Source: an uncultured virus (IMG/VR IMGVR_UViG_3300031525_000002) | Lineage: Duplodnaviria; Heunggongvirae; Uroviricota; Caudoviricetes | Length of the DNA: 64,000 bases | Strand: one strand, 5' to 3' | Virus record (IMG/VR): IMGVR_UViG_3300031525_000002 | Part shown: in pieces, positions 55,106 through 58,197 of the stretch | Numbering within the stretch: the first letter of the stretch is position 1 | How the letters are laid out: every line of letters starts with the position of its first letter | Translations under genes and position numbers: made by a program | Notes under the pieces: generated by a model | The model's input: the letters and a program-made list of their open reading frames with translations, nothing else | The model's database searches: none | What the model was told of the DNA's origin: nothing

Positions 55106-56033
55106 CCTCCGTCCAACGTGGTCTTCCCGTCGGCCGACACTTCGAAGTGACGGGCCGTCACGATCTTCTCCCAGGTGTCCAGCGCGAGGTCCTCGATCTC
55201 CTTGTCGGTCATCGACCGCTTCTCGAGACCATCGCGCAGCGGCGCGGTCATTGTCCGGGTACCGAGGCGACGCGCGCCCATCGCCATGCCGATGTCGTGG
55301 AGCACATCCAACGCTTTTCGCAGGTCTGACCCGACGCTCATCGCACCCTCACACGTCCGCTGCCCTCGCAGCCGTCACATTCTTGCAGCCACTGCTCTCC
55401 GCAGATGTCGGGTTCGCTGTAGACCGAGCCCTTCCCCTCGCAGAGCATGCAGGTTGGTCCGGTACGACGCTCGCGCTCCGACAGCAAGCCCTGCGCAGCT
55501 CGGCGGAGCTTGCCCCCGTCACGGAGGAAGCCTGTCGCTGTCGCCTCTTGGGCGGCCTTGTGCAGGTCGTCCGGCGAGCGCTGGGGGGCGAGTCGGCCTG
55601 CCTTCCGGAGGCGCGCGAGACGCTCACTGGGCATGATGAGGCGTCGGGCCATCACTTGGCGGCCGCCTGTCGCTTGCAGTAATCGCAGTCGCAGTCGGGT
55701 GCTGGTCCCTGTCGACGACCCCACGCCTCGATGGCGGGCGACCACGTCCCGTGGACGCTCAGCCACTTGTGCTTGAAGTAGGTGAACCGCTCCTCCTCGG
55801 TCCATCGGTTCGACGTGTGCCACACGAATGGCGTCCCGCACGATGGGTTGTGGCACGCGAACCCGTAGCCTTCGATGGGATCACCGCAGTCCGCCTTGCA
55901 CATCCGTTGACATCGCGGGCACGCCTCTTCGGGGAAGGCCGCGTACGTCGCGGCGGAGCGTGCGCAGGCAGCGGCGTAGTCGCCATCGCTCATAGGACCG
56001 TCCTCATCTTCCTCTCCTTCGCGGCCATTCGTT

Positions 56034-56231
56034 CCTCCAACCAGCACCTCACGTTCCGCCTCCCGGTCACCGTCCGCGTCTCCACGGAAGAGATCGTTGG
56101 GCCCGCAGCGTGATGCCCGCGGAACCTATCCTCCAACCAACACCTCAACTCCTGCCTCCCGCCACCCCTGGGCGCATCGGCATCATCTGGCACTACCTCC
56201 AACCAACACCTCAACTCCTGCCTCCCGCCAC
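56034..56231 (-). CRISPR. Mini CRISPR array: two identical 36-bp repeats and one degenerate repeat
   Basis: GTGGCGGGAGGCAGGAGTTGAGGTGTTGGTTGGAGG at 56231..56196 and 56165..56130; degenerate copy at 56070..56034; spacers of 30 and 59 bp; adjacent to cas1. Confidence 0.85.
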
Positions 56232-56572
56232 CGAGAAGGTACGGCAGAAGTCCGCTGCCACAAGCTATTATTCAGCGTCCTCGATGCGTCTGCTTGGGCT
56301 GCTGCGATGCGCGTCTGAGCATGGTGCCCAACTACCGGCATCGACCAGACCACGGGCAGGTACCCGCGTCCGCAGATAACGACGACAGCGCCTCTCTCAG
56401 CCAGCGCTACCGCAACCTCGCTTGTGTATGTGCAGCCACGAGCCGTCACAATGACCGCTTGAATGTCATCGAGCGGGATGTGACCGAGTTCCTTGTCGGC
56501 CGCGCGTACGACCATGAAGCCGGCGTCGACGCTCAGCGAACGCCCATGCTCCGCGATCTCTACGACGTGCAT
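56183..56572 (-). pseudogene. cas1: Truncated Cas1 (N-terminal domain only, type II-C-like)
   Basis: VEIAEHGRSLSV..GFMVV..IPLDDI.AVI..G.TYT..ALAERG..VICG..LP..GHH.Q..AQ..LWQ; similarity ends near 56252 and the frame runs into the array. Confidence 0.85.
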
Positions 56573-58197
56573 GGTTTCCCCGGCTGCCTTCCGAGTTCTC
56601 GCCTGAGACCGTTCCATGCGACGATCTGGTCCGTCCCACGCGTGAACCCGCACTTCTCACACGTCCACGTCGGCGCCATCTGGCGCTCGGCGTGCACGTG
56701 CTTGCAATCGGGGCACCCGCGCGCGTCCCAGTGTGCGTCGAACTGCGCAAGCTCGACGGATGCAGTCGCGGCGGTGGCATCGCGCGTGGCACGCCCCTTG
56801 TCGTCCACGTAGATCTTCGCGCAGGCTTGCTTGATTCGGTCAAGCATCTTGGCGAACGGCCACTGCCTGAGCAAGGCCTGCACCACGTCCGGCACGTCGT
56901 CACCCATCTCCTTCGGGTTCATCTTCGCCACGAGGAGCTTGCTCACGCCACGGTTCACGCATTCGTTGGCAATCGACCTCGCCCAGACCTTGCACCGCGT
57001 ATCGACGAACCGGTCCTCGGCATCATCGATCTTCCTAAGCGCTGCAAACCGACGTCGTTTGCCTCGACCCCTGGCCCCGTCGCCGGCCTCCATCTGTCCC
57101 ATGTGTTCCCCGATGGAGACCTTACGCGCCTTCAGGCGCCTCTTGAATGCCACCACGTCGCCGCCATCAATCGTTCGGATGGACCCGTCAGCGAACACCA
57201 AGACGAGAGCGCTCCACACGCCTCGACGGAGCGCAGCGGTCGTGCCGACCAGTGGTCGCGACATCTTCCGCGTGAGGCGAATCGTCAGCTTCGCAAACCA
57301 CTGCTTCTTCCGCTCGGAATAGACGACCCGCGCGTCACATAGTTTCACGTCCTTCTCGCCCAGCATCCGCTTGGCGTACGCGTGCATGCTGGGTCCGTCA
57401 GGGATAACCGTGAATCCGCTCCGCGTGACCTTCTTGCCATCGGTGTCGAGTTCGAGCGTAAGGTTGTAGCGGCCCTTCGCATCGCCTCGGTCGAAAATCC
57501 AACTGCCATCACGCCACCGGATCGGCTGCCCAGCTCGGTAGGTGTCGTTGGATCGGTCACCTCGGAACGCTTCTTTCTTGTAGATCGCGTACCGCGACGC
57601 CGTGTAGCGCACCGCCGAGTCGTAGACCGATGATGGCATGCTGTTGGTCGCCTTGATGCGCAGGCTCGCGCATCGCTTCTGTGCGAACGTGAGACGCTTG
57701 CTCAACGTCACGGCCTCCTCCGTGCGCTCCTTCGAGCGGGCTCGGCCGAGGTCGACGCGAATCTTCTCGACCTCCGCCTCCGCCTTCGGCACCTGTTTCG
57801 ACCAGTAGTCGCGCTCGCGCTCGAGGAGCGCCTTGACCGCATCGGTCACAGGACCGCGTGCCAGCGTTTCCTTCTCCGGGTTTGTCTTCGACGCCACCTT
57901 GTCGGCGCGGTGCCACTCGCTAATGGCCGTATTGAGGACGCGGTGCATGCAGTCGCGCATCGCCCAAAGCCGATCGAACTTCTCTTGGTCGCCATCGTAG
58001 ATGACGGAGAACTGTACGACGACCGTGTCCTTGGTCTCGTCGCTCTCGGCACCGCCAGTCGCGCCGCCACCCGCCGGTTGCCCGGATTGAGGTGTTGGCT
58101 GCGGATTGGTTACCGCCTGCTTGGTGAGCGCTCGCTCATCCTTTAGGACCTGGAGCGGCCCTACAGTGACGGCGCGGCTGTCGGTGTCGAGTTTCAC
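56560..58197 (-). CDS. Cas12f/TnpB-like type V effector with degenerate RuvC
   Basis: RG.RS..TYR.GQPI, WFAKL, RGRGKRRR..E.RF, QWPF, CPDC..CEKCG..D..AWN; RuvC-I reads AALRRG and RuvC-II reads LLVAKM. Confidence 0.8.
   Translation of the reverse strand: MKLDTDSRAVTVGPLQVLKDERALTKQAVTNPQPTPQSGQPAGGGATGGAESDETKDTVVVQFSVIYDGDQEKFDRLWAMRDCMHRVLNTAISEWHRADKVASKTNPEKETLARGPVTDAVKALLERERDYWSKQVPKAEAEVEKIRVDLGRARSKERTEEAVTLSKRLTFAQKRCASLRIKATNSMPSSVYDSAVRYTASRYAIYKKEAFRGDRSNDTYRAGQPIRWRDGSWIFDRGDAKGRYNLTLELDTDGKKVTRSGFTVIPDGPSMHAYAKRMLGEKDVKLCDARVVYSERKKQWFAKLTIRLTRKMSRPLVGTTAALRRGVWSALVLVFADGSIRTIDGGDVVAFKRRLKARKVSIGEHMGQMEAGDGARGRGKRRRFAALRKIDDAEDRFVDTRCKVWARSIANECVNRGVSKLLVAKMNPKEMGDDVPDVVQALLRQWPFAKMLDRIKQACAKIYVDDKGRATRDATAATASVELAQFDAHWDARGCPDCKHVHAERQMAPTWTCEKCGFTRGTDQIVAWNGLRRELGRQPGKPCTS
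58072..58190 (-). ncRNA. Candidate tracrRNA overlapping the effector 5' end
   Basis: Anti-repeat CAGCCAACACCTCAATCC at 58101..58084; CTCCA at 58155..58151; hairpins including CCGG-GCAA-CCGG; boundaries approximate. Confidence 0.5.

Follow-up and report, generated by a model that had tools for sequence, protein, structure and literature searches.

A likely phage-borne, Cas12f-related CRISPR locus with a non-canonical RuvC domain, a truncated cas1 and a putative tracrRNA inside the effector reading frame

Several lineages of type V CRISPR systems are described as having lost the nuclease activity of their RuvC domain. V-C and V-M effectors are RuvC-inactivated and interfere by blocking transcription (PMC12669027, PMC11656645), and the inactivated type V forms listed as blocking transcription, or as predicted to do so, comprise V-C, V-M, V-O, V-P and Cas12b3 (PMC12669027). 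Systems with Cas12m or Cas12c, moreover, occur on mobile elements (PMC12669027, PMC11656645, PMC11013384). Closer to Cas12f, the dCas12f-sigmaE proteins are described as nuclease-dead relatives with RNA-guided DNA binding, most of which are encoded beside rpoE or helix-turn-helix (HTH) genes, and a separate CRISPR-linked dCas12f cluster, with C-terminal truncations that remove part of RuvC, has been proposed to repress (PMC13472631). Here, we analyze a Cas12f-like locus with a truncated cas1 and a short CRISPR array on a stretch of 64,000 nucleotides (the window) from the uncultured virus record IMGVR_UViG_3300031525_000002, for which an earlier note, made from the sequence alone, had proposed a compact RNA-guided repression system with a frozen set of guides.

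On the minus strand, the open reading frame (ORF) of the effector (58197-56560) is followed by a Cas1 stub (56572-56183) and then by three repeats. With the cas1 ATG at 56572 and the effector stop codon at 56562-56560, the two ORFs share the 13-nt overlap pointed out in the earlier note, and the array consists, as also stated there, of three repeats, namely two identical 37-mers and one 76% copy. We read this arrangement as a reduced type V locus that would serve as an RNA-guided DNA-binding module with fixed guides, similar to CRISPR interference (CRISPRi), and from the sequence we assign this reading a probability of roughly 60%. In the proposed mechanism, a minus-strand transcript would give rise to a ∼155-nt trans-activating CRISPR RNA (tracrRNA) from the 5′ end of the effector message, to the 545-aa effector, and to a short precursor of CRISPR RNAs (crRNAs) from the mini-array. 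The anti-repeat of the tracrRNA would pair with the 3′ half of each repeat, the effector would bind the duplex, and the resulting complex would find DNA complementary to the spacer, where it would remain bound and, without cutting, keep the target from being transcribed or replicated, as Cas12m and Cas12c do. The earlier interpretation was right in outline, and its mechanism is one that we, too, infer; new here are the putative tracrRNA embedded in the reading frame, the apparent stepwise loss of RuvC residues, the phage-like context and the staged loss of adaptation.

The effector is a Cas12f relative by sequence and fold, and not a Cas12k. Searching the single sequence against solved structures with phmmer returned AsCas12f chains as the best relatives (E 9.4e-13), and a 29-member family profile searched against the Protein Data Bank (PDB) matched AsCas12f at E 6.5e-29, with other Cas12f proteins next; the match to 9n9c, the dCas12f linked to a sigma factor, had E 3.1e-11, and no Cas12m or Cas12k chain was matched at E≤1. 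An AlphaFold2 model (mean predicted local distance difference test score, pLDDT, of 79.3; residues 1-52 below 50) has the TnpB/Cas12f fold, in which RuvC is split and a zinc ribbon (TNB) is inserted. Among its Foldseek matches, AsCas12f ranks first (8j12_A, E 5.6e-22), Cas12m2 comes 12th (E 9.8e-16) after Cas12f chains, and Cas12k does not appear before rank 34. AsCas12f is the top match by sequence, by profile and by fold, as expected for the Cas12f-type effector with zinc finger that had been proposed. A link to type V-K, drawn in the earlier note from the ends of the repeat, found no support, as Cas12k is that distant by fold and is not matched by sequence; nothing else points to Cas12k, and this lead was dropped. 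Matches of the effector to curated families were below threshold, with 18.3 bits for Pfam Cas12f1-like_TNB (cut-off 26.3) and 30.9 bits for NCBIfam guided_TnpB (cut-off 100), and a tblastn search of the phage collection returned just two distant TnpB-like matches at 20-25% identity.

The likeness to Cas12f (V-F; AsCas12f, OsCas12f) includes the domain order, the zinc ribbon, the downstream array and the predicted pairing of a tracrRNA with the 3′ part of the repeat. In contrast to Cas12f, the effector is ∼120 aa longer with long helical insertions (helices 115-211 in the model), the sequence of the putative tracrRNA lies within, or immediately ahead of, the start of the effector ORF, and cas1-cas2 accompany the family. 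For the greater Cas12f branch, a consistent association with arrays only has been described (PMC10691335).

In HMMER alignments, Arg324 corresponds to the RuvC-I Asp of AsCas12f, the residue that was replaced by Ala by the depositors of 7wju and 8dzj, whereas Ala424 and Asp523 align with the RuvC-II Glu and the RuvC-III Asp, respectively. The triad reads Arg-Ala-Asp in place of the catalytic Asp-Glu-Asp, and in this respect the protein departs from Cas12f. We aligned 170 fetched proteins to a family hidden Markov model (HMM) and counted residues over the sequences covering each column, in a core family (n=37, fragments included) and in the next-best representatives (n=133). Within the core family, RuvC-I is Arg in all 34 covering sequences, RuvC-II is Ala (24), Ser (9) or Pro (3) with no acidic residue among 36, RuvC-III is Asp in 35 of 35, and the four zinc-ribbon Cys are present in 36 of 36. 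The complete R-A/S/P-D triad is found in 32 of the 37 sequences; the other five are fragments lacking one or two of the columns. The replacements are a family trait and not local decay. The absence of the RuvC-I Asp and RuvC-II Glu next to a remaining RuvC-III Asp, which the earlier note had read from this one protein, holds across the whole family, and the structure prediction and RuvC alignment against AsCas12f that it had proposed as checks gave a Cas12 fold and, by sequence alignment, neither Asp nor Glu at RuvC-I or RuvC-II.

The next-best representatives differ from the core family at RuvC-II. Their RuvC-I position is His (71), Asn (28), Arg (23), Asp (3) or Val (2), i.e., His, Asn or Arg in 122 of the 127 sequences covering the column, their RuvC-II position is Glu (101) or Asp (11) and thus acidic in 112 of 128, and RuvC-III is Asp (119) or Glu (8), with the zinc-ribbon Cys in 128 of 129. 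One member of this sister group still has its best match in Cas12f (OsCas12f, E 2.6e-26). Because the sister group mostly carries His, Asn or Arg at RuvC-I yet Glu or Asp at RuvC-II, the comparison suggests a stepwise loss, in which the first Asp had gone in the sister group and the Glu has also gone in the family of the window. Since relatives of the window's locus have complete adaptation modules and long arrays (see below), the dead-nuclease state would appear to be ancestral to an adaptive CRISPR family rather than a phage-specific relic. The sister clade consists of Cas12f-like proteins of 440-600 aa, and its commonest triads are HED (51), NED (26) and RED (11).

As only one RuvC carboxylate is left, we infer that the effector most likely binds its target rather than cutting it, with repression as the presumed outcome and a host or rival element as the presumed place of the target. 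The invariance of Asp523 and of the four Cys would also suit an effector that is still a nuclease, whether DNase, nickase or RNase, and that uses a rearranged site for cutting interference or for processing of its own RNA. Other points in favor of this are that, in the broad sister group, Glu and Asp persist although RuvC-I is His or Asn, that a conserved substitution may, as argued in PMC10691335, indicate an active site that is rearranged but working, and that those relatives which have cas1-cas2 and 14-15 spacers resemble immune systems in their behavior. However, two-metal RuvC chemistry needs more than one carboxylate, Arg is unable to bind metal, and the Ala, Ser or Pro at position 424 has no conserved acidic neighbor, position 425 being Lys in 25 of 35 core sequences and Glu in just 2. 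We therefore consider a cutting effector unlikely.

A candidate guide-RNA scaffold lies within the effector gene. Part of the CRISPR repeat is complementary to a segment inside the 5′ end of the effector ORF (58087-58101), and this repeat/anti-repeat complementarity recurs at the same relative place in every locus with a known repeat, despite differing repeats. An alignment of the effector 5′ regions of all nine loci that we found (see below) yielded 43 pairs in RNAalifold, 32 of them with compensatory changes, and the predicted RNA has a long closing helix around three hairpins, a single-stranded anti-repeat and a GCAA-capped hairpin. On this structure 92.5% of the cells are paired, compared with 36-48% when the partners are slid by 1-3 columns, and the 32 double-change pairs compare with 5-10 in the slid structures; none of 500 shuffles reached the observed values. 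The copy in the window has a minimum free energy of -79.1 kcal/mol (z -4.56) and scores 149.5 bits with the covariance model, a value that is high by construction. No Rfam family matched at the structured RNA.

Cognate repeat/anti-repeat duplexes have predicted energies of -18.6 to -30.1 kcal/mol, compared with means of -7.7 to -16.3 for shuffled sequences, and at most 1 of 200 shuffles was as good; for the window's own duplex (-30.1 kcal/mol versus a shuffled mean of -16.3) this was 0 of 200. Cognate pairing was the best in its row for six of seven loci. The exception is locus L003; its RNA is nearly identical to that of the window, and its repeat has a slight preference for the latter. We read the structured RNA as a putative tracrRNA, so that the locus would have, like Cas12f, a tracrRNA with an anti-repeat next to an array. 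In the window this region is probably also translated, because the GTG at 58197, located behind AGGAGG, is the sole in-frame ATG, GTG or TTG ahead of the conserved effector core; in locus L006, the effector ORF begins after the RNA. Boxes of the form TTGACA-N17-TAnAnn were spotted by eye upstream of the RNA in L006 and L008.

Selection on the effector gene was estimated from the relatives L002 and L003, which are 84% and 79% identical to the window. The ratio of nonsynonymous to synonymous substitution rates (dN/dS) in the effector body is 0.087-0.123 at dS 1.16-1.30, and this gene body is under purifying selection, not decaying. Neutral decay among homologs, named in the earlier note, together with a lack of crRNA binding, as evidence that would speak against a functional system, is not seen in this comparison. 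Over the first 60 codons, dS is down to 0.20-0.35 and dN/dS up to 0.70-1.16, which is the signature of constraint on nucleotides rather than on protein, and the residues encoded there coincide with the disordered part of the AlphaFold2 model.

Relatives of the effector were found in metagenome contigs only. A word-indexed protein search gave 29 proteins including the window's own, and an exhaustive profile search 121 representatives at E≤1e-30, about a dozen of which score above 470 bits and represent the core family. Nine metagenome loci were found, including the 132,819-bp contig of the window itself; no effector relative was detected in viral_contigs or among 185,579 prokaryotic species, each represented by a single genome (genome_contigs). 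Downstream repeats, about which the earlier note had asked, are present in six of the eight other loci (L003, L005, L006, L007, L008, L009), and the contigs of the other two end too early to judge. The arrays comprise at least 15 repeats in L008 and at least 14 in L009, with all spacers different. Full-length cas1 is encoded in three of the eight loci (L002, L005, L009), and a cas2 confirmed by Pfam in L005. With these arrays and genes, the family has the behavior of a genuine CRISPR system.

In the window, homology to Cas1 spans just residues 1-107 of a relative's Cas1 (56572-56252, E 7e-48). The match to Pfam Cas_Cas1 spans positions 3-91 of a 283-position profile, the C-terminal domain with the catalytic site is missing, and the reading frame continues into repeat 1. 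No Cas2 was detected in the window by tblastn (E≤1), and neither Cas2 nor Cas4 among the 87 window ORFs scanned with Pfam. Cas2 is thus entirely gone from the locus, as is the part of Cas1 that carries catalysis; because of this, its two guides are fixed and not renewable by the locus itself, which agrees with the frozen guide set proposed earlier. L002 has an intact cas1, of at least 315 aa, that overlaps the effector by the same 13 nt, and L003 has no cas1, its first array repeat (L003:2680-2716) overlapping the effector stop codon. Full Cas1 in L002, a stub in the window and none in L003 represent, as read from these three sequences, a stepwise loss of adaptation in the window's clade.

Several observations weigh against a working binding module with fixed guides. 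The array looks worn, with a 59-nt second spacer and a degenerate last repeat, and, because Asp523 and the zinc ribbon are strictly kept, the RuvC pocket may retain some role, e.g., in RNA processing or strand binding. Moreover, the searches confirmed no target of the spacers. With up to 3 mismatches, spacer 1 matches only itself within the window, and for the first 20 nt of any spacer the best partial matches in the window have at least 5 mismatches. Exact 22-24-nt seeds of spacers 1 and 2 do not occur in viral_contigs, nor does an exact spacer-1 seed in genome_contigs, and the arrays of L009, L008 and the window gave nothing or chance-level matches (E 0.3-0.9) in the phage collection.

The window was found in 24 peat-metagenome runs, none of which is listed as an RNA sample. 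In four of these (X4-X7), the contigs show no difference from the window over the parts that they cover, array included; they probably stem from the same phage strain, and the identity therefore says little about array turnover. One low-depth contig of X7 matches only 56164-56196, i.e., spacer 1 ± 3 nt, at 90-95% likeness, and runs on into unrelated flanks of 90 and 28 nt. This contig may hold the protospacer of spacer 1, in another replicon or elsewhere in the phage. By eye, it reads as one open frame that is rich in G and C at third codon positions (GC3).

The absence of a target in these searches, together with the truncated Cas1, the missing Cas2, the degenerate last repeat, the odd length of spacer 2 and a consensus scan of 55600-59200 that revealed no minus-strand sigma-70-type promoter or terminator sites, would be expected if the module were a decaying remnant without present function in this phage. 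We regard this as improbable, because the ORF has no interruption and evolves at a dN/dS of ∼0.1 along the branches between the window and its relatives, because the RNA keeps every helix (149.5 bits), because two of the repeats are perfect, and because the sequence is identical in four other runs; a very recent loss of function would escape these tests.

A further role to be weighed against repression of host or rival genes is that of a decoy, in which the dead effector and its tracrRNA would soak up the crRNAs of a related host system. Such a role has been proposed in PMC11656645 for a phage Cas9 with an inactive RuvC, and the phage context, the dead nuclease and the locus's own tracrRNA combine to bring it to mind here. 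Because the search of one genome for each of 185,579 prokaryotic species gave no effector relative, there is no known host system whose repeats would match, and the relatives have their own cas1-cas2 and long arrays; a decoy is very unlikely.

In six of the eight other loci (L004-L009), a conserved gene for a ∼200-aa protein lies between the effector and cas1 or the array (e.g., L008:2215-2838). It was found in the window neither by tblastn nor by HMM search, and is absent from the window's clade. The model of this accessory protein (pLDDT 87) has a helical domain followed by a long C-terminal coiled coil. Its similarity to the DNA-binding domains of ParB, SopB and Noc is weak (Foldseek E 2-8; VIA 6s6h_B Z 5.9 over 95 residues), with fold matches no better than the background expected for helical proteins, and in Pfam it belongs to no family, giving just coiled-coil noise below the cut-offs. 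The conserved gene and these weak matches are the reason to consider a bound complex that recruits another activity, be it transposition, activation of transcription or a partner such as the accessory protein, a reading that has hardly any weight here given that the accessory gene is missing from the window and that its 87 scanned ORFs include no transposase or sigma-factor family.

Cas12m (V-M) and Cas12c (V-C) are likewise compact type V effectors with a non-canonical RuvC and interference by binding, as proposed here; Cas12m, which gave no sequence match at E≤1 and ranked 12th by fold (see above), processes its own crRNA without a tracrRNA. Unlike in the truncated dCas12f cluster and the dCas12f-sigmaE systems, the C-terminus, zinc ribbon and RuvC-III Asp are intact here and no sigma factor is found among the scanned ORFs. 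TldR and Cas12k are RuvC-dead TnpB/Cas12 proteins that are used for binding only. However, TldR comes without CRISPR array or Cas1 and has its omega-RNA downstream of the gene, a context not present here, and Cas12k sits in Tn7-like transposons, of which tnsB, tnsC and tniQ were not found among the 87 Pfam-scanned ORFs. Neither was any transposase or sigma factor, which is in accordance with the earlier note.

The survey PMC10691335 catalogues 40 candidate branches, V-U6 to V-U45, and our family, compared by description only, may be its candidate V-U24 or a sister clade of it. V-U24 is described there as having a non-canonical RuvC-I, which is Arg in 34 of 34 sequences here, and an associated HTH-domain protein, for which the helical accessory protein with its weak ParB-like HTH matches might be the counterpart in six of the eight other loci, though not in the window. 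The family is probably already catalogued but uncharacterized. No accession of the family was found in the supplementary PDF of PMC10691335 that was searched, V-U24 is named in no other paper of the literature searched, and no paper on a family with these features was found in it.

The window likely derives from a phage, as judged by its gene content. PHROGs searches covered 109 window ORFs selected by a GC3 filter, and Pfam scans 87, so that a missed gene is possible. Nine of the 109 ORFs match PHROGs at E≤1e-5, including an endolysin, two HNH endonucleases, a tail protein, a PAPS-reductase-like protein and a UvsX-like ATPase, and the few Pfam matches among the 87 include no housekeeping enzyme. 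The phage origin assumed in the earlier note therefore stands as likely, but no capsid, portal or terminase was recognized among the scanned window ORFs, and nothing in the phage collection matched 24 kb of the window in a megablast search. The surroundings of L009 look alike and include ORFans besides a tRNA, an HNH gene and a helicase. A cluster on the minus strand of the window (41066-42144) contains a tRNA-Cys (41066-41139), another tRNA whose anticodon call is odd (41261-41336) and a transfer-messenger RNA (tmRNA; 41799-42144, Rfam RF00023, 61.2 bits versus a gathering score of 47), and is adjoined by an HNH endonuclease gene (42159-42596); a tmRNA is uncommon on a phage-like contig.

Table 1. 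Positions of the features of the Cas12f-like locus within the window.
Feature	Position	Strand	Basis
Effector gene, 545 aa, Cas12f-like, non-canonical RuvC (Arg324/Ala424/Asp523)	56560..58197	-	Sequence, profile, fold, alignment
tracrRNA-like structured RNA, ~155 nt, over effector codons 2-53	58038..58193	-	Covariation, 9 loci
Anti-repeat within tracrRNA-like RNA; 15 bp with 3′ half of CRISPR repeat, one G-U	58087..58101	-	Inverted match and local alignment
Codon of Arg324, RuvC-I Asp position	57226..57228	-	Alignment to AsCas12f
Codon of Ala424, RuvC-II Glu position	56926..56928	-	Alignment to AsCas12f
Codon of Asp523, retained RuvC-III Asp	56629..56631	-	Alignment to AsCas12f
Zinc ribbon CxxC...CxxC (Cys495, 498, 513, 516)	56650..56715	-	Invariant in family alignment
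Cas1 stub ORF, 129 aa; Cas1-like only 56252-56572 (~107 aa)	56183..56572	-	Pfam, homology to relatives
CRISPR repeat 1, 37 nt	56196..56232	-	Repeat search
Spacer 1, 29 nt	56167..56195	-	Between repeats 1 and 2
CRISPR repeat 2, 37 nt, identical to repeat 1	56130..56166	-	Repeat search
Spacer 2, atypical 59 nt	56071..56129	-	Relatives' spacers mostly 30-38 nt
Terminal repeat 3, degenerate	56034..56070	-	28/37 identical overall; 17/19 in 3′ half

Some arrays of the family are irregular. Spacer 2 of the window has about twice the usual length and may represent two spacers after loss of a repeat, or a spacer plus filler, and behind repeat 3 comes the region where ribosomes would bind for the next gene (ATG 55993). 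L005 has a single, degenerate repeat over the effector stop (L005:2961-2997), directly after which the accessory gene begins with its ribosome-binding site and start codon. The repeats at the effector stops of L005 and L003 and repeat 3 of the window are possibly crRNA-like regulatory RNAs, or possibly reflect tight packing. L007 (L007:2222-2292 and L007:2919-3236) has no cas1 and carries an irregular array with spacers of ∼17-41 nt, whose very short repeats of ∼14-17 nt correspond to just the part that pairs with the anti-repeat; two further short repeats directly precede the accessory gene.

Tentatively, the repressor reading can be taken further, to a scenario that we think possible but doubtful. 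Large peat-soil phages might carry their own adaptive, non-cutting CRISPR system, a Cas12f offshoot turned into a programmable repressor, and the copy in this phage might have shed adaptation and become hard-wired with two guides against a gene of the host or of a rival element, as a takeover or exclusion device. The tracrRNA in the first 50-odd codons would then couple the dosage of protein and RNA, as each transcript would be either translated or cut into guide scaffold.

Nuclease-dead type V proteins are known from plasmids (Cas12m), from transposons (Cas12k) and as bacterial regulators (TldR, dCas12f-sigmaE). The family described here would add a dead lineage derived from Cas12f and would be distinct from these in four respects: its relatives retain a complete CRISPR system, including cas1-cas2 and arrays that reach 14-15 repeats, it seems to live on phage-like contigs, its RuvC residues were apparently lost in steps, from His/Asn/Arg-Glu-Asp in the sister clade to Arg-Ala-Asp here, and its putative tracrRNA is encoded within the effector reading frame. 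Three close relatives display the loss of adaptation step by step, and the effector, with ∼490 structured residues and a defined guide RNA to test, would be a compact natural scaffold for CRISPRi.

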